DNA of 64,000 bases, taken from the NCBI GenBank assembly GCA_001780275.1, contig MFGB01000007.1, positions 66,280 to 130,279 on the forward strand, in the 5' to 3' direction. The notes below the pieces were generated by a model. The model had not been told where the DNA came from. It saw only the letters and a program-made list of their open reading frames with translations, and searched no databases. Both the position numbers and the translations under genes were made by a program. Source of the stretch: Candidatus Falkowbacteria bacterium RIFOXYA2_FULL_47_19 (GTDB taxonomy: Bacteria; Patescibacteriota; Patescibacteriia; Patescibacteriales; UBA12075). This document shows positions 18,750 through 43,229 of the stretch, in pieces (the stretch's first letter is position 1; every line of letters begins with the position of its first letter).

Positions 18750-19919
18750 TTAAGCATTCTTCATTCGAAATTTCCCATATTCCTCTTCAATAAAGCTCTT
18801 TATCTCCTCCTTGAATCTCTCTTTTGAAAATTTCATGGCATGCTCCCGAATTGCGGCCGGATTATATTTGGCCGCGTCAAACTTTTTAACGGCCCCGATG
18901 ATCGCCGCCGGCGTCTGCTCGTCAAAAAACTCTCCACTTACGCCCTCTTTGATCGTTTCCGTGGCCCCGCTCTTGCGGTAAGCGATGACCGGCCGGCCGG
19001 ACGCCTGCGCTTCTATGACCGTGATGCCGAAATCCTCGTCCTGGGGGTGCACGAAAGCCTGGCAATCCGCGTAAAGCCGGGCCCGTTCCTCGTTGTTCAC
19101 GCGTCCCAAAAATTCAATATTAGCCGCGGTACCCGCGATCTTTTTGAGCCGGAGCATATCCGGCCCGCTACCGTATATTTTTAATTTCAGGCCCAGTTCC
19201 TTAAAGGCCTCGATCACGATATCCACCCTTTTATAAGGGTTCAGGCGGCAACCGGCGAGAAAATATTTGTCCGCCGGCTTTTCCCGGGCGACATAAAATT
19301 TATCAAGCTCCACCGGCGGATAGATCAGCGTGGAATTCTGGCGGTAATATTTTCTTATCCGGTTTTGAACCGTCCTGGAGTTGGCGATATAAGCGTCCAC
19401 CCGGTCCGCCGCCACCCGGTCCCAGACCCGGATATAATTTAAAACCAGGGAGATCAGTTTCTTGAAATATTTATTGTACTTAAGCTCGCTGATATACTGA
19501 TGCGTATAATCCCAAAGATAACGGGTGGGAGTATGGCAATAGCAGACATGGAGCGTGTCCAGGGGCGTGATCACGCCTTTGGCGAAAGAACTGGAGTCGG
19601 AGAGCACCAGATCGTAAGAGCTTAGATCAAAAAATTCCGTGGCCATGGGCATGAATGGCATATACCACTGGTAATGGCTGACGCCGCCCGGAAGCTTCTG
19701 GATTATAGAGGTGTGTATTTTTTTTCCGGCGTAATATTTGGCCGCGTTTTTTTCTTCGTAGAGCAGGGTATAGATCGGCGCTTCCGGAAAAATTTCCGCG
19801 AAAACCCTGAGTACCGCCTCGGCTCCCCCGTCCTGCGCCAGGTGGTCATGCACTAAAGCGACTTTGATTGGCGATTGCCGATTGGCGATTTTCGAATTAT
19901 TGTCTTGATAATTATTCAT
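18750..19919 (-). CDS. Glycosyltransferase family 4 (GT-B)
   Basis: Motifs seen are VALVHDHLAQDGGAEAV and FVHPQDEDFGITVIEAQASGRPVIAY. The N-terminal 18 aa are unusual and include a heptamer array. Confidence 0.85.
   Translation of the reverse strand: MNNYQDNNSKIANRQSPIKVALVHDHLAQDGGAEAVLRVFAEIFPEAPIYTLLYEEKNAAKYYAGKKIHTSIIQKLPGGVSHYQWYMPFMPMATEFFDLSSYDLVLSDSSSFAKGVITPLDTLHVCYCHTPTRYLWDYTHQYISELKYNKYFKKLISLVLNYIRVWDRVAADRVDAYIANSRTVQNRIRKYYRQNSTLIYPPVELDKFYVAREKPADKYFLAGCRLNPYKRVDIVIEAFKELGLKLKIYGSGPDMLRLKKIAGTAANIEFLGRVNNEERARLYADCQAFVHPQDEDFGITVIEAQASGRPVIAYRKSGATETIKEGVSGEFFDEQTPAAIIGAVKKFDAAKYNPAAIREHAMKFSKERFKEEIKSFIEEEYGKFRMKNA
19867..19894 (-). repeat. Heptamer array (CGNNAAT family, 4 units) in the 5' end of the GT4 gene
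   Basis: The plus strand reads attggcg attgccg attggcg attttcg. The minus strand reads cgaaaat cgccaat cggcaat cgccaat. The array encodes aa 9-18 (SKIANRQSPI). Confidence 0.85.
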
Positions 19920-20023
19920 ATCATGATTTTTTATTTAAAAAACAAAAAAAACTAAAAAATAAAAATCCAGCTAACCACTTCGCCACGGCCAACAACGCCG
20001 TGGTTTTTTATTTAAAAAAAGTT

Positions 20024-20051
20024 AAATGTCAATTGTCAAATGTTAATTGTC
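20024..20051. repeat. Heptamer array (AAWTGTY) x4
   Basis: The array reads aaatgtc aattgtc aaatgtt aattgtc. It ends 4 nt from the wbaP-like stop codon at 20056-20058. Confidence 0.85.
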
Positions 20052-20055
20052 GTTA

Positions 20056-21480
20056 TCACGCCGCTTTTCTTCTCCTGATTACCGCCAACGGAGTCCTGAA
20101 TAAAATAGCCAGATCAAAGAGCAGGGACCAGTTCTCGATATAATAGGTGTCAAGCTTTACCTCTTCTTCGAACGAGAGATCGCTCCGGCCCGAGATCTGG
20201 GCCAGGCCGGTTATGCCGGGTTTAATGGTCATAACCTTCTTGTGGCGCGCCTCATATTGCGTTACCTCCCGCGGCTGGTGCGGACGCGGACCGACCAGGC
20301 TCATATTACCCCAAAAAACGTTAAAGAACTGGGGTAATTCGTCTATGCTCCATCGGCGGATAAACCGCCCCAGGCGCGTAACGCGCGGATCATTAACGAT
20401 CTTATAGACCGGTCCTTCTTTGGAATTCTGTTCGCGGATCAATTCCTTTTCATAGTTTTCCGCCGCGCCGCTGGCGTATTCCGCGCCCGTACAGTACTGG
20501 ATGAGCATGGAGCGGAATTTAAGCAGTTTGAATTTTCGGCCTGCCTGGCCGACTCTTTCGTTCATGTATAAGACCGGCCCCCGGGAATCAAGTTTTACCG
20601 CCAGTGCCGCCAAAAGAAACAAGGGACTGGTTACGGTAATAAGGATAACGGCTCCGATAATATCGAAGATCCGCTTGATTATCCGCCCCCAGCCGTCCAG
20701 GGGCGTTTTTTTGACCTCGACGATCGGGATACCCGCTATTTCCGTCACTTCAGTTTTAAGAACTTTGGCGCCTAAAAGATCGGCGGCGTATTTAAAGGTC
20801 AGGTGATATTCATCGGCGAAATCATAAAGCCTTAGGGTTTCCGCCTTGCTTAAATTTGGATCGCTTTGGATAAGCTCGTCCGCCTCTTTCGCTTTAAGGA
20901 ATTCGACCAATTCGTCCCGCGCCGCCAGATCGAAACTTCTCAGCCTTTTCACGACCTCAAAACCGGAGTCGCGGTTAACGGAAAATTCGTGGATCAGATT
21001 TTCCGTGGTTTTGCTGTTCCCCACCAAAACCACCTTATGCACGCCGATACCGCTCCGGAATAAAGCGCGCTGCAGTAGCCTGACCAGGCTGCGGGCGAAA
21101 CTTATATATATGATCGCCAATATCAACCCGGCTAAAACAATAAAACGGGAGTCGAATAACTCCCGTCTGATGAAAATAAGCACAACAACCAGCATAAAAC
21201 CGGTTGAACAGGCCAGGACCACGCGATAAAGCTCTTTTGCGAGCTTTCTGGCGCTCCTGATATTATAAAGTCCCGCCAAAGCGAAAATTATAAGCCACAA
21301 CGCCGCTACGATCGATACCGCCTTGAGATAACCGTAAAAATCCAGATTAAATATGACCGGACGGTATGTCTGGAAAAATTCGGCATAACGTATGTAGTAA
21401 GCCGAGATCCCCGCTAAAATTATCGCGGCGAAATCCAGTGGCACCAGTAAAAACGAAAAAAAGAGTTCTGAACGCTTCAT
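20056..21480 (-). CDS. Polyprenyl-phosphate sugar phosphotransferase (WbaP/bacterial sugar transferase family)
   Basis: The N-terminal hydrophobic spans are followed by the C-terminal motif DELPQFFNVFWGNMSLVGPRPHQPREV..KPGITGLAQISGR. Confidence 0.88.
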   Translation of the reverse strand: MKRSELFFSFLLVPLDFAAIILAGISAYYIRYAEFFQTYRPVIFNLDFYGYLKAVSIVAALWLIIFALAGLYNIRSARKLAKELYRVVLACSTGFMLVVVLIFIRRELFDSRFIVLAGLILAIIYISFARSLVRLLQRALFRSGIGVHKVVLVGNSKTTENLIHEFSVNRDSGFEVVKRLRSFDLAARDELVEFLKAKEADELIQSDPNLSKAETLRLYDFADEYHLTFKYAADLLGAKVLKTEVTEIAGIPIVEVKKTPLDGWGRIIKRIFDIIGAVILITVTSPLFLLAALAVKLDSRGPVLYMNERVGQAGRKFKLLKFRSMLIQYCTGAEYASGAAENYEKELIREQNSKEGPVYKIVNDPRVTRLGRFIRRWSIDELPQFFNVFWGNMSLVGPRPHQPREVTQYEARHKKVMTIKPGITGLAQISGRSDLSFEEEVKLDTYYIENWSLLFDLAILFRTPLAVIRRRKAA

Positions 21481-21527
21481 AACTCATAACTCATAACTCA
21501 TAACTCATAACTTTGCTTTGTTATGAG
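21481..21527 (-). repeat. (AACTCAT) x4 abutting the wbaP-like start codon, plus complementary arm
   Basis: Four exact 7-mers span 21481-21508, directly after the CAT (ATG) at 21478-21480. ctcataa (21504-21510) pairs with ttatgag (21521-27). Confidence 0.85.
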
Positions 21528-21562
21528 TTTTAAGTTACGAGAAAAAAAATTCTAATAATATC

Positions 21563-22003
21563 GGGGCAAGCTATAAGCCGGATTCTGTATCCGCCGAATC
21601 GGCGGACGATGGCCATTTATCTAGGATCGTTGTTACCAACGACCTCATGCGAACCACTTATCTTCACCCCGAATTCTCGGAATGAGTTTGTTCTTGCTCC
21701 AGGCAGGGTTTACCGCGCATTCCGCTCGCGCGGAAGCGAAGCTTGTAGCCTTTTGACTCGAGGACAAAAGACACCAAGCGACTTTTCACTCTTCCCCCGA
21801 GGAAAGCAAAGCTTTCTTTTCGGGGTAGTATGGTCTCTGTGGCACTTTCCCTAAGGTTTCCCTCGGTCGCCGTTAGCGACTGCCGTTTTGAATTTCAGAT
21901 ACGCCGTCTTCGAAAATCGAAAATCGGCAATCGTCAATCCAAAGAGTCCGGACTTTCCTCTCTGCTTAACTAAAGCTAAGAAGAGCGGCCATCCGCTTAC
22001 CAC
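21563..22003 (-). ncRNA. rnpB: RNase P RNA, bacterial type A
   Basis: The minus strand contains GAGAGGAAAGUCCGGAC (P4 5' strand), GUGCCACAGAGACCA, GGUAAACCCUGCCUGGAGCAAGAACAAA, CUAGAUAAAUGGCCAUCG and ACAGAAUCCGGCUUAU (P4 3' strand). P1 forms as GGUAAGC/GCUUGCC. A P8-like hairpin GUCGC-UAAC-GGCGAC is present. The ends are approximate. Confidence 0.88.
21911..21938. repeat. Heptamer array (CGNNAAT family, 4 units) inside rnpB
   Basis: The array reads cgaaaat cgaaaat cggcaat cgtcaat. This is the same unit family as at 19867 and 26454. Confidence 0.85.
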
Positions 22004-22049
22004 GATATTACTAGAATTTAATGTTCTTGATTTATAGCAACTCTAATTT

Positions 22050-22078
22050 ATATTACCAATATTGATACAAAAAGTCAA
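22050..22078 (-). promoter_or_regulatory. Sigma70-like promoter upstream of rnpB
   Basis: The minus strand reads TTGACT (22073-22078), a 17-nt spacer, then TAATAT (22050-22055). Confidence 0.5.
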
Positions 22079-22160
22079 TTAAAATAGATAAAATCAATAA
22101 TGTTTTTATATTTTTTATTGTTTAACATTAGAGAAATTTTAATTTATTCCGTGGTAGCAC

Positions 22161-22189
22161 TTGACAATATAAAAAATATATGCTATATT
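22161..22189 (+). promoter_or_regulatory. Consensus sigma70-like promoter
   Basis: TTGACA (22161-66), a 17-nt spacer, then TATATT (22184-89). The 12-mer ACTTGACAATAT is identical to the one at 43659. Confidence 0.6.
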
Positions 22190-22195
22190 AATAAA

Positions 22196-22335
22196 TTAGC
22201 GGTGGCGATCGGCCGGTCTTCCGGCCGGTTGCCACCGATATATACAAGCACAACCAGTTTTATATAATAATAAAACATTTCCTGTAAAAACAGCTAAAAA
22301 CCACTCTGAACTATAAAGAGTGGTTTTTAGTTTTA
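22196..22335 (+). ncRNA. Candidate small RNA (~135 nt) between a promoter and a terminator
   Basis: A 17-bp GC-rich hairpin (22200-22237, loop tctt) starts a few nt after the predicted TSS. The terminator is ccactct/agagtgg (22301-22323) plus a T-run. There is no credible ORF and no match to a known RNA family by eye. Confidence 0.3.
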
Positions 22336-22342
22336 ACATGTG

Positions 22343-22371
22343 GTAGAGACGCCCCGCCGGGGCGTCTCTAC
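22343..22371. repeat. 29-nt palindromic element, copy 3
   Basis: GTAGAGACGCCCCGCCGGGGCGTCTCTAC, identical to copy 1. Confidence 0.85.
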
Positions 22372-22381
22372 GCTTGTGGAC

Positions 22382-22410
22382 TTGACAAATCAATGAAAAT
22401 TTGTTAAAGT
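22382..22410 (+). promoter_or_regulatory. Sigma70-like promoter of the 22531-24198 operon
   Basis: TTGACA (22382-87), a 17-nt spacer, then TAAAGT (22405-10). Confidence 0.5.
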
Positions 22411-22530
22411 CAAAATAATTTTCGCTCCTTGAAAATCAATTTTTACGGTGTCTGCCTGAATTAGCGGCGCTATGTCCGGGATGGGCCTGGATGTAAAAAA
22501 CCGTTTGACGGCGGATGCAAGGAGAACACA

Positions 22531-23529: not shown

Positions 23530-23542
23530 GAAGGAGAAAAAG

Positions 23543-23842: not shown

Positions 23843-23868
23843 CTATAACCCATTTTATCGGAGGAAAT

Positions 23869-24198: not shown

Positions 24199-24203
24199 AA
24201 CAC

Positions 24204-24232
24204 AACGGCTGAAAAATCAGCCGTTTTTTATT
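24204..24232 (+). terminator. Rho-independent terminator of the 3-gene operon
   Basis: Stem aacggctg / cagccgtt, followed by TTTTATTTT. Confidence 0.8.
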
Positions 24233-24307
24233 TTGTCATTCTGGAGCGAAGCCGCGGCGAAGCGATAGAACCCCTTTTGACTGATCGAATAATTTAAAAC
24301 CGTAGCG

Positions 24308-24328
24308 CAATTTCTAATTTCCAATTTC
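24308..24328. repeat. Heptamer array (YAATTTC) x3
   Basis: The array reads caatttc taatttc caatttc. It lies in the gap downstream of the GT2 gene. Confidence 0.7.
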
Positions 24329-24374
24329 GCGCGAGCGCAGCAAGAGTTTAATATCACGAGCCCGCAGGCGAGTT

Positions 24375-26200: not shown

Positions 26201-27346
26201 CTATAATAATCCGGCTTTAATACCATAACGTATCTTTCGCGTTAAATCAAGATAAAACTCCAAATTATTGAGCGTAGCCAGCCTTTGCCCGAGAGGCTCA
26301 CGGATCTTGAATAAATAATGAAGATAAGCCCTGGATAAATTCCTGAGTTCCGATAATTTACTCTCCGGATTGATCGGTTTAAAATCTTTCGCGAATTTCG
26401 CGTTAGTAATATTCTCGGTTTTATAAAAATTATTTTTTGATATATCTGTCGGCCGCAAATCGGCAATCGGCAATCGCCAATCGAAAATCCGACCGTGCCT
26501 TCCTTCCCGCGTCGGTATCACGCAGTCGAGCATATCCACCCCGCGCTTTACCGCCTCGACGATATTCTCGGGATAGCCGACGCCCATAAGATAGCGCGGC
26601 TTGTCGGCCGGCATTTCCGGCACGAGGTAATCCAAAACCGCATACATCTCGGCCGCCGATTCCCCGACCGACAGGCCGCCGATGTTGTAGCCGTCCCAGC
26701 CGATATCCTTTAAATCTCTCAGGCTCTTCAGCCGCAACTCCTTATCTAAACCTCCCTGAATAACGCAGTGGAGCAATGGCTTTTTCCCTTTTAATTTATC
26801 ATGATATTTTTTCGTTTTCCGGGCCCAGGCAGTGGTCAGATCCACTGATCGTTCGATATATTTCCGTTCCGCCGGCAGAGCCACGCATTCGTCAAGGCAA
26901 ACAGCGATATCGACGCCCAGGTCCGTCTGGATCTTCAGGGATCTTTCCGGTGTTAAATAGTATTCCCGACCGTCGACATAAGACTTAAAACGCACTCCGT
27001 CGGCTGTCAGTTTTACCAGGTTTTCGCCAGATCTTTTTTTCGTACCGGCCAAAGAAAAAACCTGAAAACCGCCCGAGTCGGTAAGAATGGGCTTGTCCCA
27101 ATCCATGAATTCATGAAGTCCGCCCGCTTTCTTGATAAGCTTCTCGCCGGGCCTGAGCATCAAATGATAAGTGTTGGATAAAAGTATCTGCGCCTTCAAA
27201 CGCCGCATCTCTCCGGTCGCCACCTGCTTGACCGCGCCCTGAGTCGCGACCGGCATGAAAAACGGAGTCTTGATTTTACCGTGGGCTGTATGCAAAATAC
27301 CCGACCTGGCCTTGCTGATTTTTGAATATTTGGTGACTTTAAACAT
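26201..27346 (-). CDS. tgt: tRNA-guanine transglycosylase (queuine tRNA-ribosyltransferase)
   Basis: Motifs seen are TPFFMPVATQGAVK, LSNTYHLMLRPG, LTDSGGFQVFSL, MLDCVIPTR and SRAYLHYL. The start was moved to the ATG at 27346 (MFKVTKYSK..). Confidence 0.9.
   Translation of the reverse strand: MFKVTKYSKISKARSGILHTAHGKIKTPFFMPVATQGAVKQVATGEMRRLKAQILLSNTYHLMLRPGEKLIKKAGGLHEFMDWDKPILTDSGGFQVFSLAGTKKRSGENLVKLTADGVRFKSYVDGREYYLTPERSLKIQTDLGVDIAVCLDECVALPAERKYIERSVDLTTAWARKTKKYHDKLKGKKPLLHCVIQGGLDKELRLKSLRDLKDIGWDGYNIGGLSVGESAAEMYAVLDYLVPEMPADKPRYLMGVGYPENIVEAVKRGVDMLDCVIPTREGRHGRIFDWRLPIADLRPTDISKNNFYKTENITNAKFAKDFKPINPESKLSELRNLSRAYLHYLFKIREPLGQRLATLNNLEFYLDLTRKIRYGIKAGLL
26454..26488. repeat. Heptamer array (CGNNAAT family, 5 units) inside tgt
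   Basis: The array reads cgcaaat cggcaat cggcaat cgccaat cgaaaat. It is read on the minus strand as ..IFDWRLPIADLRP.. Confidence 0.85.
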
Positions 27347-27351
27347 ACTTT

Positions 27352-27459
27352 CAAGGACACAAGATACAAGGATACAAAAAAATCCCAATATCCAAACGGT
27401 TTGATATTTGGAATTTGTGATTTGAAACTTGTTTGTATCCTTTTATCTTGTGTCTTGTG
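27352..27459 (-). terminator. ~100-nt compound hairpin filling the gap between 27466..29583 and tgt
   Basis: The outer arms cacaagatacaaggatacaaa (27358-78) and tttgtatccttttatcttgtg (27432-52) pair with one mismatch. The imperfect inner hairpin is followed by a T7 run on the minus strand, so it looks like a terminator. The arms show 7-nt periodicity. Confidence 0.6.
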
Positions 27460-27465
27460 TTTTGA

Positions 27466-29583
27466 TTATTCAACCACTCCCGCCCCCCTCGCGATATCAT
27501 CGTCCTCGAGCTTGGTGGTCTTGGCCGGAGTAGTAAAGTTCAACTCCGCTTCGGTTTCGTTGTCTCTGGCGGTAACGCTTGAACCGGGCAGGAGCACCAT
27601 GATAGTATTCTTATCCTCCTCTTGCGGCGTGATTTTAAGGCTCCATTCGGCGCTCGAATCATAAACCGTAACAGGCAAACGCCCGATATCCCAAACCACT
27701 TCATGGGTACCCTCCAAATACTTAACGGCGCCGGCGGTTGACCTTTCTTTACCGTCCCAGCTAACGTATTTCGGGAGCTTGACCGATATCCTCAGATCCG
27801 AGAGTTCGTGCAGATTATTGTTGAGCTTCCAATAAACTTTATAGCTTGTGGTTTCCCCGGTTTTAGGCGGATGCGGCCCGGTGCCGACCGGAATATTGTC
27901 CTCATTGAAATAACGCGCCGACTCCTCGAGTTTAAGATCGCTGTTTATCCTTATAAGAACCGTATTGCTGCGGTTGTCGCCGTCTTCGGACCTCTCGGCT
28001 CCCTCTTCGATCTCCCCGACGCTGAATTGCGCGTAGCTTTCCGCCTGGTATTTTTTACCCGGATCGATCGCGCCGACGTTAAGGATATCTATGGAAAAAT
28101 CGATCGTGCCCTCGGCGTGCTTAGCGATCGTCTCCAGGGCGGGTATTTCTTCCTTGCTCCAGGTGATCGTATTCCCCTTTTCCTTCCCCTTGTTTTCATC
28201 TTTTAAGCTCGCCCAATCAAGGAAATCGCTGTCCAATACGGCCATGATCACGACGTCTTTCATGTCGGTCTCGCCGCTGTTCTTATATACTATCGAATAA
28301 TTCAGGGTTTGGCCGAAGTCGGCTCCCTGGTTATCCCGCGCCCCGTTCACTATCATGGTCAAATTAAGATCGCTCTTCATTACCTCGAAATTAAGCTTTG
28401 CTTCGTGGAATTTTATGTAGCGGCCGGAAACGGAACTGGCGGTAGCGGTAGCGCTATCACCGATGTTTTTCTCGAAGTAAACGACAATATCCTGCTTATC
28501 GGATTTTTTTTCGGTAAACTTTATCCTGATCGGCAATATTTTTTCTTCCTTCCCGAGACTCTCGATCTCCCAGACCCCCGGTCTTATCATCTTGGCCGGC
28601 GCCAACTTTCCCTTATCCTCTTCTTTCGGGGCCGGCGCGCCGATCTCGATATTTTCCTGCGGTTCGACCGTAAGGCGGAAATTGCCGATATAATTCTTTT
28701 CGTTCGGATTCAGCCTGATCGTAACCTCGTCCTCCTGCCCGATAAGGGCGCTCGCTATATAATCATAATCGATCTCGATGCCGATATCGTTTATCATGGT
28801 CGACGACATGGTCTCTTTCTTGAATTCGGAGGAAAAATTTTCCGGCGAATACGTCAAATCGGCGGTTATTATCCCCCGGTCGTTCTCGAGTCCGACCATC
28901 ATACCCTTGATCTTTATCTTGCCTGTTTCCCGCGCTCCGACCGCTCCTATGTTCCACGATCCGATCTTATCGTTCTTTTCGTTGCCGCTTTCCGGATAGC
29001 TGTCCAGGAAGATGAAATTATCCGGGAATTTAACTTCTATCCGGACATCCCTGATATTTATATTGCTCAAATTCTTATAATGGATCGAATAAAAAAATTC
29101 TTCTCCGGCAGCCACTTCGCTTTTGCCTTCGATTGAAAATTCGACCGCGGTCGCGTCCGAACCGCCTCCTAAATAAAAATACCGGTAAGCCCCGTAAGCC
29201 GCGCCGGTTATTCCTCCGGTCATAAAAATAAAGAAAAAAAGCCAAAAAAAGAAGCCGCGGCGCTTCTTGATGTCCATTTTTTTCACGTCGATCATCTTGC
29301 CGTTATTATCTTCGTAAATTTCATGCAGGCTTTCATCTATTTCCTCTTCCATTTCCCGGCTGATGCCCTCTTCGCCGCCCCGGTCCCTTAAAGAGATTAC
29401 GCCATCCTTGACGAATGCAGGATTTCGACTCACGTACGCGGATTCTTCTACCAATTCCTCAAAACTCTCGACTTCCTCATCGGTTGGCATCGGCCGCCGG
29501 ATAAACTCCGCCAGCCCGGATTTTTTAGAATTTTTTATGACAATACTTTCGTCTATGTTGCTTTTGCCCCTGGGTTTTGCCAT
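27466..29583 (-). CDS. Hypothetical type-II membrane protein with large extracytoplasmic repeat region (705 aa)
   Basis: A charged N-terminus is followed by a single span FFFWLFFFIFMTGGITGAAYGAY. About 560 aa of beta-rich sequence follows, with DUF11/CARDB-like segments. No confident family. Confidence 0.8.
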   Translation of the reverse strand: MAKPRGKSNIDESIVIKNSKKSGLAEFIRRPMPTDEEVESFEELVEESAYVSRNPAFVKDGVISLRDRGGEEGISREMEEEIDESLHEIYEDNNGKMIDVKKMDIKKRRGFFFWLFFFIFMTGGITGAAYGAYRYFYLGGGSDATAVEFSIEGKSEVAAGEEFFYSIHYKNLSNINIRDVRIEVKFPDNFIFLDSYPESGNEKNDKIGSWNIGAVGARETGKIKIKGMMVGLENDRGIITADLTYSPENFSSEFKKETMSSTMINDIGIEIDYDYIASALIGQEDEVTIRLNPNEKNYIGNFRLTVEPQENIEIGAPAPKEEDKGKLAPAKMIRPGVWEIESLGKEEKILPIRIKFTEKKSDKQDIVVYFEKNIGDSATATASSVSGRYIKFHEAKLNFEVMKSDLNLTMIVNGARDNQGADFGQTLNYSIVYKNSGETDMKDVVIMAVLDSDFLDWASLKDENKGKEKGNTITWSKEEIPALETIAKHAEGTIDFSIDILNVGAIDPGKKYQAESYAQFSVGEIEEGAERSEDGDNRSNTVLIRINSDLKLEESARYFNEDNIPVGTGPHPPKTGETTSYKVYWKLNNNLHELSDLRISVKLPKYVSWDGKERSTAGAVKYLEGTHEVVWDIGRLPVTVYDSSAEWSLKITPQEEDKNTIMVLLPGSSVTARDNETEAELNFTTPAKTTKLEDDDIARGAGVVE

Positions 29584-33518: not shown

Positions 33519-33539
33519 CTTTTATAACTAACAAAAATT

Positions 33540-35189
33540 TTATTTTTTAAAAACTCTCTGTCCCTCCGGCGTATCCTCGACCGTCCAACCCAATTTTTCT
33601 ATCTCCTTGCGCAGACGATCGGATTCCGCCCAATTTTTCGCCATCCGTGCCAATACCCTCGCCTTAAGAAGCTTTTCTATTTCTTCGTCCAATACTTCGC
33701 CCTCGTTCATTAATAAAGTCGTTGATGAAGAAGTTGATGAAGAAGTTGATGAAGAAGTTGATGAAGAAGTTGATGAAGAAGTTGATGAAGAAGTTGATGA
33801 AGAAGTTGATGAAGAAGTTGATGAAGAAGTTGATGAAGAAGTTGATGAAGAAGTTGATGAAGAAGTTGATGAAGTATCTAGTTCTTTTTTTATGGATTTT
33901 AATTTGGATAAATTCAAACCCAACACCTTGTCAAAGTCCATAGCTAACGCTAATTTTTCATCATCTTTCAAATCGGATTTTAAAACCTCCTGTAACACCG
34001 CCATGGCCATTGGCGTATTTAGATCATCGTTTATAGCCCGTAAAAATTTATCCTTATACCGGTCAAAATTCACGCATTTATCATCTTCAAACTCTAAACT
34101 TTTTTCAAACATTCCATTTGATTCTTTTTCGCCTGCCGGAACACAGCTCAATTCTCTTATTTGATTATTAAGGTGTTCCAATCCGTCTTTGGCCGCCTTG
34201 AGCGAATCAAAGGTAAAGTTCATGTGTTTGCCGTAATTCGTCTGCATGCAGAGGAAACGAAAGGCCAAAGGTTCGAATCCTTTCTCTTCAATATCCCTTA
34301 AGGTATAAAAATTCTTGAATCTCTTGCTCATTTTTACGCCGTCGACAAGCAGATACTCGTTATGCAACCAATAATTGACCGGCGTTTCCGTATCGTATCC
34401 GATTACGCTCTGCGCGATCTCGTTCTCATGGTGCGGAAATTTAAGGTCGATGCCGCCGGTATGGATATCGAAAGGCATCCCCAATGCGGATTGGCCCATG
34501 GCCGAGCATTCAATGTGCCAGCCCGGACGGCCCGGCAGTCGCTCGCCGTTCAGTTCAAAATCCCAGTACGGCTCGCCGTCCTTGCACCCTTTCCAAAGGA
34601 CAAAATCCTGGACATTTTCTTTTTCATATTCATCAGCATCAACCCTGGCCCCGGCCCTGAATCCGTCCATGTCTATATTGGTAAGCTTCCCATATTTATG
34701 GTCCGCGGCATATTTGGCGACATTAAAATACACCGAACCGTCTTTGCCGTAAGCGTAGCCGGCATCAACTATCGATTTGGTCAAAACCTGCATTTTTTCG
34801 ACATATTCCCGATCGGCGGCATGCGGCACTATATCGGGCTTGTTTATATTCAATTTTCGCGTATCATCCCAAAAAATCCGTTCATATTCGCCGGTAAACC
34901 TGTTTAAGGCTTCCATCGGCTCCAGGTCCGGGTATTTCAACTTTGAATCCCTGATCGTTTTATCGTCAACATCGGTAATGTTCATCACCCATTTTACAGC
35001 CGTCTGCCCATAATTATACCTTAAGGTTCTATCCAGGATATCGGAAAATATATAAGCCCGTAAATTTCCGATATGAGCGAAATTATAAACCGTCGGGCCG
35101 CAGGTATAAAGACCGATTTTGGCCGGATCGATCGGCATGAACTTTTCTTTTTTCCGCGTAAGCGTATTGTATAAAAAAATATCGTCCAT
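33540..35189 (-). CDS. cysS: Cysteinyl-tRNA synthetase
   Basis: Motifs are YTCGPTVYNFAHIGNLRAY (HIGH) and KMSKR (VKMSKRFKNF). The start was moved to the ATG at 35189 (MDDIFLYNT..). That ATG lies 1 nt after the stop of the upstream ORF, so the track's 59-aa extension overlaps that ORF. Confidence 0.9.
   Translation of the reverse strand: MDDIFLYNTLTRKKEKFMPIDPAKIGLYTCGPTVYNFAHIGNLRAYIFSDILDRTLRYNYGQTAVKWVMNITDVDDKTIRDSKLKYPDLEPMEALNRFTGEYERIFWDDTRKLNINKPDIVPHAADREYVEKMQVLTKSIVDAGYAYGKDGSVYFNVAKYAADHKYGKLTNIDMDGFRAGARVDADEYEKENVQDFVLWKGCKDGEPYWDFELNGERLPGRPGWHIECSAMGQSALGMPFDIHTGGIDLKFPHHENEIAQSVIGYDTETPVNYWLHNEYLLVDGVKMSKRFKNFYTLRDIEEKGFEPLAFRFLCMQTNYGKHMNFTFDSLKAAKDGLEHLNNQIRELSCVPAGEKESNGMFEKSLEFEDDKCVNFDRYKDKFLRAINDDLNTPMAMAVLQEVLKSDLKDDEKLALAMDFDKVLGLNLSKLKSIKKELDTSSTSSSTSSSTSSSTSSSTSSSTSSSTSSSTSSSTSSSTSSSTSSSTSSSTTLLMNEGEVLDEEIEKLLKARVLARMAKNWAESDRLRKEIEKLGWTVEDTPEGQRVFKK
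33721..33874 (-). repeat. 12-bp microsatellite (GTTGATGAAGAA) x ~12.8 inside cysS, encoding (TSSS)n
   Basis: There are 12 perfect units plus a 10-nt partial unit. The minus-strand reading gives ..DTSSTSSSTSSS...TSSSTTLLMNEGE. Confidence 0.95.
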
Positions 35190-35190
35190 A

Positions 35191-35478
35191 TTATACTTTG
35201 GTCTTAATATCAACACCGCTGAAGCCGTACAGGCCATGGATCGTTTCGCAGGCGGAGGCATAGGCTTTTTGCCCGTTATCGGCCCGCTGGCCGGTACTGC
35301 GCCACTCTTCCTCCCCTTCTTTTTTAACTTCGACCAGGCCGGTTTTGGAATTCCACTGGGTTTCAAAAAAGATCTCCTTGCCCCGGATCATCGCTTTGAT
35401 TTTCTCCAAAGGCCATTTACTCCCGCTTTCCGCCTGATTTTTCCTTATGGCGCTCATTAGCTCGCCGTATTCTTTCAT
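35191..35478 (-). CDS. Hypothetical protein (95 aa)
   Basis: This is a track ORF. Its TAA lies 1 nt from the cysS ATG, which suggests coupling. No family was recognised. Confidence 0.5.
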   Translation of the reverse strand: MKEYGELMSAIRKNQAESGSKWPLEKIKAMIRGKEIFFETQWNSKTGLVEVKKEGEEEWRSTGQRADNGQKAYASACETIHGLYGFSGVDIKTKV

Positions 35479-36719: not shown

Positions 36720-36926
36720 TAAATTAACCCTTTCAATGAGTAAATATAAACCGCTAATGCGCCAATTTCGCGGTTAGCGGAACCTTGGCCGGATTGAACA
36801 CAAAAAACATTGGTAAACACAGCATAACACAAAAAAAAGAAAATGTCAAGCACTTTCTTTTTTTTCCGTAAAAATATTTATAAACGATCTTTAATATGGT
36901 TAAATAACTCTAATTTTACAATAAAT

Positions 36927-38222: not shown

Positions 38223-38293
38223 ATTTTATTTATAACTCCCTGGGCTTTGTGATAAATATATTAGCATAATAATCTAAAAGCTAAAAGCAATTT

Positions 38294-40222
38294 TTATCTT
38301 TCTTTCGGCACCTGGTAATAATTCAAGATAAATTCGGCGATTTCCGAAAAGAGAGGGGCCGTCGAAGAATCCGCCCAGGCCACGTCTTTAGGGTCGTTCA
38401 ATTTTACCAGCATAACGAATTTCGGGTCGTCGGCCGGCGCGAAGCCGATGAAGGTATGGATCGTCCGGCCCGCCTCATAACCCTTGGTTCCGCTGCCGGC
38501 CACCTGCGCCGTGCCGGTCTTGCCGCCGACGTAATAGCCTTTTACGGCCGCTCGCGTGGAATGGCCCTCTTCGACCACCCTGACCATCATGCCGGATAAA
38601 AGCAGCGAGGTTCTTTCGGAAATAACCCTTCTTACCGGCTGCGGCTGAGTTTTTATCCTTTCCCCTTCCGACGTCACTATTTCATCCACCACGTAAGGTT
38701 TCATCAAAATACCGCCGTTAACGACCGCCGCGTAAGCGGTTATGGTCTGGAGAGGAGTGACCGTTATTCCCTGGCCGAAAGTCGCGGTCGCGACCTCCAC
38801 CGGCCTGATAACGTCGCGCTCCAGGTTAACGATATTACCGCTTCCTTCGCCCGGCAGCTCGATTCCGGTTTTTTGCCCGAAACCGAATTTTTTGACGTAA
38901 TCCGCGAAAACCTCCGGGCCGGTTCTCTGCATAACATGGATCGAGCCGGTATTTAAGGATAGCTCCAGGACGGTGATCATATCGACCGTGCCGTGGCCGC
39001 CGAAAGTATCGAAGTCGGAATTTTTTATCGGTTTTGACCAGCCGGGTATCTTTATCGAACCCTTGTCGTTATAGGTGCTCTCCGGCGTGACCTTACCCTG
39101 GTCTATTCCGGCCGACATCGTAAAAATCTTGAAGATCGAACCGGGTTCGTATTGATCGAAGACCGCGGGATTATTGTAAATACTGATATCGTCCACCTTT
39201 CCGTAATTATTGGGGTCATAATCCGGCCAGGAGCACATCGCGATGATAGCGCCGGTTTTGGGCTCCATCACGATAACGGTTCCGCCGTCGGCGCCGTGCC
39301 GGAGGGCGGCAGCGTTAAGTTTTTGGCAGGCGTTGAACTGGATCGAGCGATTGATCGTCAGGATCAAATCGCTGCCGTTTTTAGGTTCGTTGAATTCCCG
39401 GTCATTAACGATGATCAGGCTGCCGTTACCCGACCTTTCCGCCTTGATCGATCCCGGGGCGCCGGTCAATTCCTCGTTAAAAAAATTCTCGAGGCCGTAT
39501 CGTCCGATCTTTCCGGAATCGTCGAAACCCACGAAACCGAACAGATGGGAACCGATCGAAAATTCCGGATAATAACGGTATGCCTCCATTATGTGATCTA
39601 TGCCCAGGCCGTGAAGCTCGTCGATATAAGGGTCGAGCGTTTCTTTTTCAACCTTGTATCGGATCGGTTCGTAAGGATCGTTTTCTTTTGATAATTTATC
39701 CAGATAAGCGGCAACAATGGATTTTTTTCTGGTTTCCAGTTCGAGCTCTCTTTTGATCGCCTTGAATTCTTCCCGGTTTTTAATATCGGCGGCCGCTATG
39801 CCGAGGCCATCGGAGGAGGTTGCTGAAAAATAAGGGTCTTCTTTAAGCATCTTATCGACCTCATCCTCCACGTTCTTTCGGTCGAATATTTCGTATAAAC
39901 GATCGGCCGCCTCCGCGGGACTCTTAACGTCTTTCGGTATGGCGTAAACCAGGGCGAAATCCTTATTCGTGGCCACCGGGTAAAAATCCTTCCCGTCCGG
40001 GACCGGACTGTTCTGAATATATATTTCACCGCGCGACGGCTGCAGCTTATTATATACCTGGTGCTGGTCGGAGGCTAAAGCGACATAAAGATCGTTCTTT
40101 GATACCTGGAGTCCGTACAGGCGCAGCAGGATCGATCCGGCCAATAAAAAAATAACCGTCATGACCAGATTAAGACGATTACCGTTGTCGCTTTTTTTTC
40201 GGTTGTATTTGCTGGAAATCAT
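38294..40222 (-). CDS. ftsI: Penicillin-binding protein 2/3 class transpeptidase (FtsI-like)
   Basis: It has an N-terminal TM span and the motifs SIFK (SxxK), SLN (SxN) and KTGTA. Confidence 0.85.
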   Translation of the reverse strand: MISSKYNRKKSDNGNRLNLVMTVIFLLAGSILLRLYGLQVSKNDLYVALASDQHQVYNKLQPSRGEIYIQNSPVPDGKDFYPVATNKDFALVYAIPKDVKSPAEAADRLYEIFDRKNVEDEVDKMLKEDPYFSATSSDGLGIAAADIKNREEFKAIKRELELETRKKSIVAAYLDKLSKENDPYEPIRYKVEKETLDPYIDELHGLGIDHIMEAYRYYPEFSIGSHLFGFVGFDDSGKIGRYGLENFFNEELTGAPGSIKAERSGNGSLIIVNDREFNEPKNGSDLILTINRSIQFNACQKLNAAALRHGADGGTVIVMEPKTGAIIAMCSWPDYDPNNYGKVDDISIYNNPAVFDQYEPGSIFKIFTMSAGIDQGKVTPESTYNDKGSIKIPGWSKPIKNSDFDTFGGHGTVDMITVLELSLNTGSIHVMQRTGPEVFADYVKKFGFGQKTGIELPGEGSGNIVNLERDVIRPVEVATATFGQGITVTPLQTITAYAAVVNGGILMKPYVVDEIVTSEGERIKTQPQPVRRVISERTSLLLSGMMVRVVEEGHSTRAAVKGYYVGGKTGTAQVAGSGTKGYEAGRTIHTFIGFAPADDPKFVMLVKLNDPKDVAWADSSTAPLFSEIAEFILNYYQVPKER

Positions 40223-40295
40223 AGCAAGGGTTTTCGTTTTTCTTAATGATTACACCCCTTGCGCCCGTCTCGGTCCGTGGTGTAAATTGTAATTT

Positions 40296-40709
40296 TTATT
40301 TTCTGGCTACCGCTTCGCTTATGACGGTAATGTATTCGATCGTCCCGGCTTTGACAAGATTCATGCCCAGTGCCCGCTTTTGTATGTTCTCGTAAGATTC
40401 TAATTCCGTTACCTTGTTCGTGACCAGCTTATTATTATTCTGCAGTTCCTCGGATTTAAGCCTTAACTCCCGCAGGACGAATCCTTTGATGGACAGGTCG
40501 TTTACGCTCGCCACGAAATAAATACCGTTGATTATTATAACAATAAACAAAAACTTATTCAAAATTCCCAGATAAGACCTTTCGGCCTTTTTCCCCGGAA
40601 AAATTTTAGCGTTAAAATTATAATTTTTATTTTTGTTTTTATCTTTTATTATCATAGAATCCGCTTGTTGAATAATCCGGAGATTTGGCCTAAGATCATA
40701 CTGCCGCAA
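40296..40709 (-). CDS. ftsL: FtsL-like cell-division protein (start uncertain: TTG at 40709 or ATG at 40655)
   Basis: It has a single TM span (FLFIVIIINGIYFVA) followed by a coiled-coil-like segment. It sits between rsmH and ftsI. Confidence 0.55.
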   Translation of the reverse strand: MRQYDLRPNLRIIQQADSMIIKDKNKNKNYNFNAKIFPGKKAERSYLGILNKFLFIVIIINGIYFVASVNDLSIKGFVLRELRLKSEELQNNNKLVTNKVTELESYENIQKRALGMNLVKAGTIEYITVISEAVARK

Positions 40710-40745
40710 AGATGCCGATCGCTCTTTATGGATTATAATTTTATA

Positions 40746-41732
40746 TCATATTTTCTCCGCCACCCTCATCTTGGCGCTCCTGGCCCTGGGATTCGCTGCG
40801 ACCTCTTCGGCCGCCGGTAGAACCGTTTTTTTCGTAATTATCTTTAAAACCGCCTTATGGCCGCATTGGCAGACAGGTATCTCCGCCGGACAGACGCAAT
40901 TCCGGCTTTCGGTTTTAAAGAAATTTTTCACTATCCTGTCTTCAAGGCTGTGGTAGGAAACGACGGCTATCCGCCCGCCCCTTTTCAGGATCCGAACCGC
41001 CTGCGGCAAGGCGTTTTCCAAATTACCCAGTTCATCGTTGGTGGCGATCCTTAACGCCTGAAAAGCGCGCGTGGCGAAATGGATCTTTTTGTTATGCCTA
41101 TAAACCGCCGGTACGGATCCGCCGATTATGTTCACGAGTTCTCCGGTACTTTTTATTTCTCCCTCTTTTCTCGCCTGAACGATGGCCCGCGCTATTCTTC
41201 CCGCGAATCTTTCCTCCCCGTATTCCCGCAATATTCTCGCCAATTCCGACGCAGGATAACGATTAACGATATATTCTGTCGTCCGTTTTGCGTTTTCCGT
41301 TCTCTGGCCAAAGGCCATGTCTAGCGGAGCATCCAGTTGAAAAGAGAATCCCCGGCGCCGGTCTTCGAGTTGAGCTGATGATAGACCCAGATCAAATACA
41401 ATGCCGGAAAAAACAGGTACCTCCGGAATCTCGGAATCCGCCCGAGCGGCAATCTCGGCTGACTCGCCCGCCGCCATGATCTTGTGTAAGTCTTTAAAAT
41501 TTCCATGTATGATCTTTATGTTATTGTTTTTTTCAAATCTTTTCCGCGCGTGTTCGATGGCCAGGTTGTCCAGGTCGAAAGCCGCCACCAACCCCTTCTT
41601 GCCCACGCGCTCGGCCAACGCGGCCGTATATCCCCCCCCGCCCAAGGTACAATCCATGAATTTTTCTCCGGGTTTCGGATCAAGATACTCTAACACCTCC
41701 CCCAACATGACCGGTACGTGAATATATTTCAT
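40746..41732 (-). CDS. rsmH: 16S rRNA (cytosine1402-N4)-methyltransferase
   Basis: Motifs are HVPVMLGEVLEYL, DCTLGGGGY and SYHSLEDRIVK. The start was moved to the ATG at 41732. Confidence 0.92.
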   Translation of the reverse strand: MKYIHVPVMLGEVLEYLDPKPGEKFMDCTLGGGGYTAALAERVGKKGLVAAFDLDNLAIEHARKRFEKNNNIKIIHGNFKDLHKIMAAGESAEIAARADSEIPEVPVFSGIVFDLGLSSAQLEDRRRGFSFQLDAPLDMAFGQRTENAKRTTEYIVNRYPASELARILREYGEERFAGRIARAIVQARKEGEIKSTGELVNIIGGSVPAVYRHNKKIHFATRAFQALRIATNDELGNLENALPQAVRILKRGGRIAVVSYHSLEDRIVKNFFKTESRNCVCPAEIPVCQCGHKAVLKIITKKTVLPAAEEVAANPRARSAKMRVAEKI

Positions 41733-41821
41733 ACGACATGGAGCACGGAGCATGAAGCACTAACGGTTTGCGCGTCGCGTGTCGCATGCTTCATGTTCCA
41801 TGCGCTAAAGCACTAAAGCGC
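41731..41821. repeat. 7-nt-periodic array upstream of rsmH with partly complementary halves
   Basis: The first half reads atggagc acggagc atgaagc actaacg. The second half reads tgcttca tgttcca tgcgcta. atgaagc pairs with gcttcat. Confidence 0.65.
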
Positions 41822-42017
41822 GCGTTCGGGCAAAAATAATACTCCGCAACTCCTCCGTATCCACCAGCGGCGCTTTTATTATCCGCACTTTCACGGTCTT
41901 GGGTTGCAGAGCGACTTTTGTTTCGCACTTGATTTTTTTTGTCATATTTTTATTTTTGTTTTTCCGCCCGAGGCGGATATTTTTGGTTTTTTTGCGTGAT
42001 TCGACTTTCTTTATTTG

Positions 42018-42449
42018 TCAAATTCCCAGCTCACCCAGCGCCTCCGCGATTTCCCCGGAATCTTTTTCCGTACCTTGCTTATATTTATCCCAGGCTTCCT
42101 CTTCCCAGATTTCCAACCGATCGAACAATCCGGCGATCACGGTTTTTTTATTTAAAACCGCGAACTCCCTCAGGTATTCCGGCAAATTAATCCGGCCCTG
42201 ATTATCAAGATCGACATCCATGGCTCCGGCCAGCATCAAACGGGAAAACGCCCGGGCCTTGGATTGGCTGATCGGCAGATCGGCGAGCTTCCGGGCGATC
42301 TTCTCCCATTGCTCATGGGTATATAAAAAGAGGCACCGATCCAGACCGCGGGTCACGACCGCCCCTCCCTTAAGCTTATCCCTGAATTTTACCGGAATCG
42401 CCAGCCTTCCCTTGTCGTCTAAATTATGTTTATATTCTCCGATAAACAT
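42018..42449 (-). CDS. mraZ: Transcriptional regulator MraZ
   Basis: The N-terminus reads MFIGEYKHNLDDKGRLAIPVKFR, and a second half-repeat GRINLPEYLREF is present. The start was moved to the ATG at 42449. Confidence 0.9.
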   Translation of the reverse strand: MFIGEYKHNLDDKGRLAIPVKFRDKLKGGAVVTRGLDRCLFLYTHEQWEKIARKLADLPISQSKARAFSRLMLAGAMDVDLDNQGRINLPEYLREFAVLNKKTVIAGLFDRLEIWEEEAWDKYKQGTEKDSGEIAEALGELGI

Positions 42450-43173
42450 ATTGCGGCGGATTAATAAAAAATATAACAAGATGTTTTTTAGCACCTGCTA
42501 TATTCTTCCTTTCTTTATGATTTTACCCCCGCCGCCTTTCCGGTTAGCAGGTGTAGTCCCCTTTTATTCGTGCGGGGTAAATTGATATCAGGTTGGGTTT
42601 TTCCGCCAAAAGGCGGCAAAGCCCAGCATAATTCAACTTATGAATTATATAAACACGACAAGCACGCAAACTAAGGATCAAGAGGAGGCTGATCTTGGGA
42701 TTTTGCCCTTGATGATCAGACCCCTTCTTCGCCTTAATTTTTCCCGTTTCCGGGAATTTTTTTGTTTTTGCTCTTTTGAGGGAGCAAATAGCATCCCCAT
42801 GCTATTGTTCCGTACCCCGAGAGGTTTTACGGAACTATTTTTTTGTTTTCTTGTTAGCGCGAAATGTCTTAGCTAACAATTTTATCCGCCCGGAAACGGT
42901 CTATGAACATATCTTATCCGGTTTATTTTATTTTTGTTTTTGTCTTTGACGTATTTTTTGGATTTTCTCCACTATTCCCCATTTCACACCATTATAATTT
43001 AATCATACACCACTTTTGCCCAAAAGTCAATCAGCCGTAAGATAGAAAAAACCAGCTAACTTAAGCTTTTTTATTAACAAAAAAACCGGCTTGTTAATAA
43101 GCGGCTCTTTGACCTTCTTTTATGGTTAATAACTTTTAAACCGTTTGTCAACAGGTAATCCACAACTCTTTCA

Positions 43174-43229
43174 CGTAACGCATAACGTGGAACGCGTATA
43201 CTGCTATCTATGCATTATGCGTTACGCGA
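43174..43229. repeat. 7-nt-periodic inverted repeat overlapping the tsaB 3' end
   Basis: Units are cgtaacg cataacg tggaacg ... tatgcat tatgcgt tacgcga. The perfect 11-bp arms are cgtaacgcata (43174-84) and tatgcgttacg (43216-26). Confidence 0.7.

Follow-up and report, generated by a model that had tools for sequence, protein, structure and literature searches.

Short arrays of head-to-tail 7-nt units were found at about 12 loci within a 64-kb stretch of the genome of Candidatus Falkowbacteria bacterium RIFOXYA2_FULL_47_19, with one further locus 8.8 kb beyond its start. This stretch, which we call the window, comprises 64,000 nt (positions 66,280 to 130,279 of contig MFGB01000007.1, assembly GCA_001780275.1). 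The arrays are specific for period 7, they lie in spacers at gene boundaries as well as inside genes, their units have turned over rapidly at fixed sites among relatives, they keep the reading frame where they are translated, and several have the potential to form hairpins. We favor, with a probability of about 0.58, the explanation that they are heptanucleotide simple sequence repeats (SSRs), of the kind known as STRR in heterocystous cyanobacteria and as long SSRs (LSSRs) in prokaryotes at large, which arise by local 7-nt slippage combined with template switching or ectopic copying and are tolerated where they are harmless.

The window corresponds to positions 325-64324 of MFGK01000017.1 (GCA_001778255.1, Rifle aquifer), one of 18 public contigs that encode an identical 474-aa sugar-transferase protein (gene 20056-21480). 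An original prediction, made by a model from the sequence alone, had guessed at a genome like those of the candidate phyla radiation (CPR). This guess was correct: the RsmH protein of the window carries the database name 'Candidatus Falkowbacteria bacterium RIFOXYB2...', and the closest named proteins to its tRNA-guanine transglycosylase (TGT) are from Falkowbacteria as well. The listed genes cover ~84% of the window, and nearly all are on the minus strand.

Period-7 arrays in the window

Arrays were located with Tandem Repeats Finder (TRF) and with a separate scan of our own for periodic arrays. An array was required to have at least 3 copies with at most 15% mismatch, and the chance expectation was taken from dinucleotide-preserving shuffles. 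We observed 8 period-7 arrays in the window against 0.23 in the shuffles, and the arrays are thus LSSRs in the sense of tracts of a 1-11-nt unit that are longer than expected by chance. By the same criterion there were no arrays of periods 8-11, and the six matches at period 6 were all A/T-rich low-complexity or coding tracts. Overall, the count of non-trivial period-7 arrays in the window is 6-8. For intergenic DNA only, shuffled segment by segment, 3 period-7 arrays stood against 0.03 expected, and periods 5, 6, 8, 9 and 10 each gave none; an excess over shuffled intergenic sequence, for which the original prediction had suggested a test, is therefore present on the scale of the window. A pervasive 7-nt periodicity of all intergenic DNA was rejected. 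The slight excess in lag-7 autocorrelation was gone once the listed arrays were masked, and the period-7 signal is limited to discrete arrays.

Period-7 calls by TRF start at 19866, 20027, 21477, 21910, 24308, 26458 and 27446, plus weaker ones, and our scan recovered these arrays together with three-unit arrays at 41737, 41768 and 43208. All nine loci named in the original prediction are present where it placed them, and two window arrays (18689-18747 and 52168-52189) and a third outside the window, on scaffold L768, can be added to them. The strict 7-nt periodicity ascribed to the nine applies to six; those at 27352-27459, 41731-41821 and 43174-43229 are degenerate hairpin arms of 2-3 units, and TRF called periods 8, 14 and 7 at 27352-27464. 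The unit was said to differ by locus, and many units are indeed unique to theirs, but at least two families recur: AATCGNN, a rotation of CGNNAAT, at three loci, and CAATATC at three loci of this genome. The sharing of CGNNAAT by three loci had been recognized, without the inversion of the 19867 array relative to the other two.

Alignment of ten contigs, taken from assemblies of JGI, NCBI, ENA and Logan and representing different samples and assemblers, to the window showed zero indels. This excludes assembly artefacts as the source of the arrays and shows that, at the consensus level, copy numbers do not vary. The arrays, and the RNA gene that contains one of them, are as follows:

18689-18747, minus strand: CAATATC-family array, interrupted by the GC-rich palindrome CCTGCC-N8-GGCAGG, in the spacer that separates two GT4 glycosyltransferase genes
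19864-19895, minus strand: (AATCGSC)4 array, found by TRF and by our scan, within the first 18 codons of the GT4 glycosyltransferase gene 18750-19919
20017-20051, minus strand: (GACAWTT)4 array (AAWTGTY), starting 5 nt past the stop codon of the sugar-transferase gene 20056-21480; fold z = +1.3
21474-21541, minus strand: (ATGAGTT)5 array plus complement, abutting and including the sugar-transferase start codon, in the spacer adjoining the RNase P RNA gene
21558-22004, minus strand: RNase P RNA gene, bacterial type A (Rfam RF00010, 175 bits)
21885-21943, minus strand: 59-nt insert in the P5/P7 junction of the RNase P RNA, self-folding, containing (GAUUNNC)4 at 21909-21939
24307-24330, minus strand: (GAAATTR)3 array (YAATTTC x3), in a convergent spacer 45 nt downstream of the glycosyltransferase-2 stop codon (gene 24375-25196/25319)
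26453-26489, minus strand: (GATTGSC)-type array of the CGNNAAT family, inside the TGT gene 26201-27346
27347-27465, minus strand: imperfect long hairpin of ACACAAG-type units, occupying the whole 119-nt spacer from the stop codon of a DUF11 surface-protein gene (27466) to the TGT start codon (27346)
41733-41821, minus strand: hairpin of GCUYCRU-type units in the mraZ-rsmH spacer, extending up to the ATG at 41732 that starts rsmH
43174-43229, minus strand: hairpin built from GTAACGC/ATAACGT-type units, which overlaps the final 8 codons plus the stop codon (43208-43210) of a TsaB-like gene
52168-52189, strand unassigned: short array of the CAATATC family, reading TAATATC CAATATC TAGTATC, found by our scan within spacer 51922-52285

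As had been noticed, arrays tend to touch a start or stop codon (6 of the 9 loci first listed), largely because the spacers are only 40-140 nt long and are filled by arrays. The claim that several array pairs form long hairpins also stood: four spacers with two paired arrays each, together with the RNase P RNA insert, are predicted to do so. At 27347-27465 (inverted repeat I3, 33-nt arms, 85% complementary; -44 kcal/mol, z = -6.8), the array at 27439-27467 has its complementary arm at 27352-27388. The (ATGAGTT)5 array, which read as AACTCAT extends over 21474-21515 with 5.1 copies at 100% identity by TRF and is the sole perfect tract (21477-21512), pairs with a degenerate complementary array at 21520-21541 (inverted repeats I10-I12; -27.8 kcal/mol, z = -6.4), and the resulting hairpin takes up the spacer that follows the RNase P RNA gene. 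The mraZ-rsmH hairpin includes period-7 arrays at 41737-41760 and 41768-41788 (-36.6 kcal/mol, z = -2.2) and abuts a start codon that is confirmed by a 328-aa database protein. The hairpin at the end of the TsaB-like gene includes an array at 43208-43229 (z = -2.7 on the minus strand and -3.8 on the plus strand). In the same fold predictions, the arrays at 19864-19895, 20017-20051 and 24307-24330 do not fold into hairpins.

The hairpins do not qualify as intrinsic terminators. They lack the U-run, and the outer heptamer stems are not among the terminator-like sites, apart from a weak 5-pair inner stem that the non-coding strand has at 41777-41789. Sites of the classical terminator kind are found at other positions, 24204-24225 being one, and classical promoter and terminator scans were uninformative for the arrays. 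With the Rfam 15 covariance models, the arrays and hairpins themselves gave no match even at E <= 1. The only matches were the RNase P RNA, which contains one array, and the L10 leader, an ordinary feature at 57245-57379 (RF00557, 62.5 bits) upstream of the L10 gene (56662-57285).

Turnover at fixed sites and the wider distribution of period 7

Loci of relatives for comparison were picked through the TGT gene and not through the repeats. Homologues of TGT led to four loci syntenic with the window, L131 (Falkowbacteria GCA_043801965.1, 80-90% nucleotide identity), L132 (ERZ27254852 k141_839444), L133 (GCA_043818995.1) and L134. The units in a loop of the TGT gene are ATTGSCG in the window, (AATATCC)4 in L132, (TTCAATT)4 in L133 and, in the more distant CPR loci L135 and L140, GATKTCG and TCAAAAT, respectively, and L131 has (AATATCC)2, an 18-nt palindrome and 2 further units. 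Where L133 carries GAA(TTTTCAA)4, there is a single GAATTTTCAATTAC in L134, which looks like an unamplified precursor of the array. L138, L140 and L144 have heptamer arrays in a second variable loop of the same protein.

Similar replacement was seen in the spacers. Upstream of the sugar-transferase gene, L131 has (GYYGTCT)3, without a hairpin, instead of the (ATGAGTT)5 of the window, and downstream of this gene it has GATTTTT GATTGCC GATTAAA instead of (GACAWTT)4. The Dus-CorA spacer has no array in the window but has arrays in both L131 and L132, with differing units and positions. The 27347-27465 hairpin is in neither L131 nor L132, which carry another palindrome there; the 24307-24330 array is absent in L131, and neither L131 nor L134 has the 18689-18747 block in its orthologous spacer. 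Near the 24307-24330 array, a ~70-nt block (window 24233-24275, GTCATTCTGGAGCGAAGCCGCGGCGAAGCGATAGAACCCC, plus the terminator at 24204-24225) is kept in L131 (~13600-13680) and its flanks are not. For the rsmH and tsaB hairpins, the contig of the best relative starts 9 nt before rsmH. Another type of occupancy was documented at 20229-20464 of L135, where the 90-nt spacer between two tRNA genes consists wholly of an inverted array pair, (ATKTCGG)5 and (ATATCCG)5. As far as these alignments show, at ~15-20% nucleotide divergence almost every array has changed its unit, appeared or vanished, and several sites have been occupied repeatedly. The comparison of orthologous gaps, which the original prediction had suggested, revealed presence, absence and unit changes between relatives, and no change in copy number within the population of ten assemblies.

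Between 21727 and ~26400 of the window, L132 matches it at 100% identity; beyond 26488 the identity falls to ~80%. The switch is located exactly at the heptamer array of TGT, where the segment is 40 nt long in both, in keeping with a retained reading frame. L132 is either a natural recombinant, in which the exchange tract ends at a non-homologous array, or a chimeric assembly of two strains that occur together. We did not accept it as independent support for the arrays in the RNase P RNA gene and downstream of the glycosyltransferase-2 gene, being identical to the window in that part.

Arrays were also counted in loci beyond the window. The close relatives (61 kb) have 5 period-7 arrays, with 0-2 at neighboring periods, and ten CPR-like loci (138 kb) have 18, compared with 3 of period 8, 1 of period 6 and 4 of period 5. 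Seventy loci of other bacteria (483 kb) have 8, compared with 10 of period 6 and 6 of period 5. An excess specific to 7 nt relative to neighboring unit lengths is thus present in the window and in the loci of CPR relatives.

With AATCGNN repeated 3.6 times as query and one genome per species (185,579 species), we obtained at least 120 matches where ~4 were expected by chance. Those listed span more than 12 phyla, including Acidobacteriota, Planctomycetota, Verrucomicrobiota, Bacteroidota, Chloroflexota, Cyanobacteria, Nitrospirota, Desulfobacterota and Gemmatimonadota, as well as Xanthomonas, Luteimonas and three CPR genomes. The 8-kb loci around the listed matches contain 231 period-7 arrays of 90 unit types, ~134 of which are present by selection, compared with 3 of period 6 and 6 of period 8, and many of the listed arrays adjoin a second heptamer array or their own reverse complement. 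Relative to neighboring genes in the 120 listed genomes, 76 AATCGNN arrays were in sense and 58 in antisense orientation, at both gene ends, which is no convincing bias given the crude calling of open reading frames (ORFs); this lack of preference argues against a strand-specific RNA signal. Viral contigs served as a control. There, period-7 queries gave at least 120 matches for AATCGNN, at least 120 for AGACTNN and 69 for TACAGNN, and queries of other periods gave 68 (period-8 AATCG), 59 (period-8 TACAG) and at least 120 (period-6 TACAG). We claim no special status for the AATCG core, and the viral contigs, in which tandem repeats of all kinds are common, did not set this core or period 7 apart.

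Most unit types were found at one locus only, and the two recurrent families call for a closer look. The three AATCGNN arrays of the window all lie within 7 kb and are 85-96% alike over 26-34 nt, with one inverted. Arrays of the CAATATC type occur at 18689-18747, at 52168-52189 and on scaffold L768, as well as in the TGT loops of L131 and L132. The 18689-18747 block and a block inside the TGT gene of L131 are identical at ~50 of 57 nt (local alignment score 66; the best of 500 shuffles scored 29). Similarity between array copies stops at the array edges, and we saw no terminal inverted repeats, target-site duplications or conserved flanks. Because unit families recur and this 57-nt block is shared, growth in place is not the whole story, and some copying between arrays, or a strong unit preference, is needed. 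Complementary AATCGNN copies could conceivably pair in trans: the predicted duplex of the array in the 5' part of the glycosyltransferase mRNA (19860-19925) with that in the RNase P RNA (21900-21950) has -42 kcal/mol against a shuffle mean of -17, and with that in the TGT mRNA (26445-26500) -48 kcal/mol against -20.

Arrays in coding sequences and in the RNase P RNA

The array in the glycosyltransferase gene (19864-19895) reads ATTGGCG/ATTGCCG/ATTTTCG on the plus strand, the reverse complement of CGNNAAT, and encodes SKIANRQSP. Glycosyltransferases of relatives begin with MENNQGNNLKLKVALV and MENNNTIKVAL, and the ATG at 19919 is therefore the true start codon. Compared with these relatives, the array adds exactly 7 aa to the N-terminus, that is 21 nt or 3 units. 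The GenBank call of this gene (372 aa) implies a start at an ATC codon immediately past the array. More generally, arrays can mislead gene callers. They are free of stop codons, and the mechanical ORFs (18750-19919, 26201-27388 and 40746-41753) included 14 extra codons for TGT and 7 for rsmH, in addition to the non-ATG start annotated for the glycosyltransferase.

In the RNase P RNA, alignment with two relatives places the insert between the 5' strands of P5 and P7. This junction has 59 nt in the window, ~24 nt in L131 and ~10 nt in L134, and the array-bearing insert is lineage-specific. The position is that occupied by P5.1 in type-B RNase P RNAs. The STRR insert in the cyanobacterial RNase P RNA is reported to lie elsewhere, at helix P12.

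The third array inside a gene, at 26453-26489, encodes IFDWRLPIADL, part of an expanded beta-hairpin loop of TGT. Between the strands of GHLFV-TDG-VVKIRNAKY, this loop is ~17 aa longer than in a solved bacterial TGT. Strands at residues 286-290 and 308-312 flank it in a rough model, which is poor in the N-terminal half and confirms only these two strands. Among 91 CPR homologues of TGT, amino-acid identity within the loop was 0.100 at lag 7 and 0.05-0.084 at other lags, and clear 7-aa repeats such as KSQIPNNKQIPNFKSQIPNN and RIKNYELRIKN were found. Since three units equal seven codons, we take the 7-aa periodicity as a footprint of translated 7-nt arrays. Other CPR TGT loops hold unrelated insertions, for example FCHPERSEGSRDSS in P0024; the loop thus accepts several kinds of insertion. 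Some of them (FCHPERSEGS.../FCHSEAR..., in several CPR homologues including P0024 and P0098) resemble translated repeat elements. We also noticed that the zinc-binding CxCxxC of the solved enzyme (PECDCYTCRN) is replaced by PESKLSELRN in the window and in CPR homologues, with the motifs of the catalytic region retained.

Origin of the arrays and their significance

Heptanucleotide repeats have been described in several bacterial groups. According to later accounts of the survey by Mrazek et al. 2007 (via PMC4679880, PMC4692102), heptanucleotide units are the most abundant class of long SSRs in most prokaryotic genomes, and polymerase slippage was proposed as their origin, 7 nt matching the DNA segment held by the polymerase. 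The 7-nt excess, the non-coding bias, the scattered phylogenetic distribution and the proposed slippage, as given in these accounts, all match our arrays; CPR genomes were not yet available for that survey, and the window arrays differ in also occurring in frame in conserved genes and in a ribozyme. GGGAATC arrays of Xanthomonas lie near gene ends and in inverted pairs, had no detectable regulatory role, and keep their position across species while length and sequence vary (Rehm et al., PMC4692102). Our arrays share the placement near gene ends, the inverted pairs and the fixed position, at which units differ between species, and GGGAATC is a rotation of AATCGGG, an AATCGNN member. However, this unit and the GGGGAYT of Nostoc are G-rich and form quadruplexes (PMC4692102), whereas the AATCGNN arrays of the window are A/T-rich, with GC, CC or AA as NN and without G-runs. 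TAACTGA arrays occur in marine Beggiatoaceae, some Cyanobacteria and Bacteroidetes; in Beggiatoaceae they were described immediately ahead of start codons, and S1, Csp or CsrA were suggested to bind them (MacGregor, PMC4679880). Like ours, they have 2-6 copies, many directly precede start codons that lack a Shine-Dalgarno sequence, and some lie inside ORFs; in contrast to the many units and both orientations of the window, one unit dominates there in one preferred orientation.

The original prediction likened the arrays to the STRR of heterocystous cyanobacteria. The anatomy bears this out: head-to-tail 7-nt units in short, dispersed and mostly non-coding arrays, the coexistence of several unit families in one genome, inverted pairs that can fold into hairpins and, to go by the title of Vioque 1997 (a reference of PMC2858038), a location inside genes for RNase P RNA. 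The range assumed for such repeats was too narrow, since they are not confined to heterocystous cyanobacteria. The window belongs to a CPR bacterium with a very small genome, not to a heterocyst-forming cyanobacterium; its arrays are short (3-5 units), and none of the published units, including STRR1-3 (CCCCAGT, TTGGTCA, CAACAGT) and TAACTGA, is in tandem within it. For these reasons, STRR fits as a description and not as membership of the cyanobacterial family. The small dispersed repeats (SDR) of Nostoc, ascribed to Elhai et al. in 2008, are said to be very small palindromes that accompany heptamer tracts and can also lie inside genes. The CCTGCC...GGCAGG palindrome within CAATATC arrays (18689-18747 and the L131 TGT gene) invites comparison, with the difference that we saw only two copies.

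In the model that we favor, replication slippage would duplicate a local 7-mer head-to-tail, concerted evolution of the array would then bring about turnover of its unit, and template switching or ectopic gene conversion would copy the array elsewhere or onto the opposite strand. The outcome would be unit families spread over several loci, and inverted array pairs with the capacity to fold into hairpins. Template switching at quasi-palindromes is known as a source of mutations. In this very compact genome, arrays would persist only where extra sequence is harmless, as in gene-end spacers, a peripheral helix of the RNase P RNA, a surface loop of TGT and the N-terminal tail of the glycosyltransferase. 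The changes retained in coding sequence come in multiples of 21 nt, equal to three units or 7 aa. Local amplification is visible in the single GAATTTTCAATTAC of L134 versus the 4-copy array of L133, and in the RNase P junction of 10, 24 and 59 nt in L134, L131 and the window. The slippage and template-switch mechanism, the reason for 7 and any secondary role of the hairpins in RNA processing or stability are inferred.

The window has other repeats, too. The cysteinyl-tRNA synthetase gene cysS (33540-35366, minus strand) contains a perfect 12-nt repeat (GTTGATGAAGAA x12.8, 100% identical, 33721-33874), which in frame, as derived by hand, gives a Ser/Thr-rich (SSTS)n between the DALR and anticodon-binding domains; CysS has 461 aa in L131 and 533-608 aa in the window. 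This insertion is what one would expect where repeats often expand across the genome. A gene for a 1633-aa surface protein (1241-6142; SpaA, DUF11, DUF4215) contains a domain duplication, seen as a 252-bp unit in 1.9 copies (80% identical, 4460-4941).

Several observations weigh against the favored model. Ten assemblies, one of them with 15 substitutions nearby, show no change in copy number, even in the perfect (ATGAGTT)5; at least at the consensus level, slippage is thus not rapid within the time span of the population. The majority of arrays are imperfect. Local slippage alone leaves unexplained both the recurrence of the AATCGNN and CAATATC families at unlinked loci and the 57-nt array-plus-palindrome block shared with the TGT gene of L131. 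The 7-aa periodicity of the TGT loop across distant CPR homologues could reflect maintenance rather than mere tolerance, and the model offers no mechanistic account of the preference for 7. A purely neutral view, in particular, has to contend with the stability in the population, the recurring unit families and the deep persistence of TGT-loop arrays.

The repeated occupation of sites while the array sequence changes is also what might be expected if the arrays are cis-elements, with the 7-nt unit as the site of a single-strand nucleic-acid-binding protein (a cold-shock-domain protein, ribosomal protein S1 or similar). We consider this unlikely, though worth weighing, and hold in no higher regard its fuller form, in which rows of bound protein or hairpins act at gene boundaries to tune translation start, RNA processing or RNA stability. 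The start codons at which three arrays end exactly (21481, 27347 and 41733) are without a Shine-Dalgarno sequence, but about two thirds of the window genes have no obvious one anyway. Four spacers are wholly hairpin, and the inverted pair of L135 fills the spacer of its two tRNA genes; yet at the sugar-transferase start L131 has an array and no hairpin, and no Rfam family was matched. The AATCGSC units contain ATTGG/CCAAT, which we take to be the Y-box core of cold-shock proteins. Units that differ wholly between loci, and between relatives at one locus, nevertheless leave no single recognition sequence, and AATCGNN occurs in both transcript orientations (the GT4 gene versus RNase P and TGT), in agreement with the absence of a clear bias in the 120 listed genomes. 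Arrays in a protein loop and in an RNA helix are likewise ill-suited to a boundary signal. Published proposals and partial data do exist for such a role, in the TAACTGA arrays upstream of start codons (PMC4679880) and in Nostoc, where deletion of the heptamer tracts upstream of recO altered reporter regulation by LexA and NtcA (preprint, bioRxiv 10.1101/2022.06.06.494920).

The same recurrence of unit families that local slippage alone leaves unexplained would follow if the arrays, or blocks of array plus palindrome, were very small mobile dispersed repeats (SDR-, REP- or MITE-like), inserted by an enzyme and not grown in place. The three similar AATCGNN arrays in both orientations, the CAATATC arrays at three unlinked spacers, the 57-nt block with its GC palindrome, common to a window spacer and the L131 TGT gene and absent from the orthologous spacers, and the unrelated insertions in TGT loops all speak for insertion. 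We nonetheless find it rather improbable: copies are alike only up to the array edge, with none of the hallmarks of insertion named above, most unit types occupy a single locus, the L134 precursor next to the 4-copy array of L133 indicates growth in place, and no transposase-like gene was evident beside any array in the Pfam results for the window. Phase variation, in which gain and loss of units would switch envelope-glycosylation genes, has a heptanucleotide precedent in hmw1A of Haemophilus influenzae (PMC8262952). The densest cluster of arrays (18.7-27.5 kb) does lie in a glycosyltransferase and sugar-transferase gene cluster, where the one perfect tract overlaps a start codon and another array is in the 5' coding region of a glycosyltransferase. 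As contingency tracts, however, the arrays seem very improbable, being without length polymorphism at the consensus level of ten assemblies, imperfect in 9 of 10 cases, and found also at sites with housekeeping functions (in the RNase P RNA and TGT genes, in the leader of rsmH and at the 3' end of tsaB); gain or loss of one unit in its coding array would destroy TGT.

We found no report of such arrays in CPR bacteria, and the original prediction knew of none either: a search of the available literature library returned nothing relevant that links heptamer or heptanucleotide repeats with Patescibacteria or the CPR. This would accordingly be the first case found for the CPR, although the heptanucleotide excess itself is already published for many bacteria. 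The cause and role of bacterial 7-nt repeats have been a question since STRR were described in 1990. A streamlined CPR genome puts ideas about them to a demanding test, having little spare DNA and yet arrays in a ribozyme and, in frame, in housekeeping enzymes. Because related genomes replace units at the same sites, Falkowbacteria and their relatives, with hundreds of metagenome genomes and read sets, lend themselves to compact comparisons that can tell mutation pressure from selection. In practical terms, an array also coincides with a recombination or assembly junction in the L132 contig.

A bolder thought, on which we would place little weight, is that growth of heptamer arrays is a main generator of lineage-specific insertions in structural RNAs and conserved proteins of the CPR. 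It would take place at hot spots of long standing, among them the TGT loop and, in RNase P RNA, the P5/P7 junction, and the arrays would owe their maintenance to some process or factor operating in 7-nt register. If so, complementary copies of one unit family, such as those in the RNase P insert and the glycosyltransferase mRNA, could pair in trans as a side effect. Short of this, the arrays are one possible source of the insertions that are specific to CPR RNAs and proteins.

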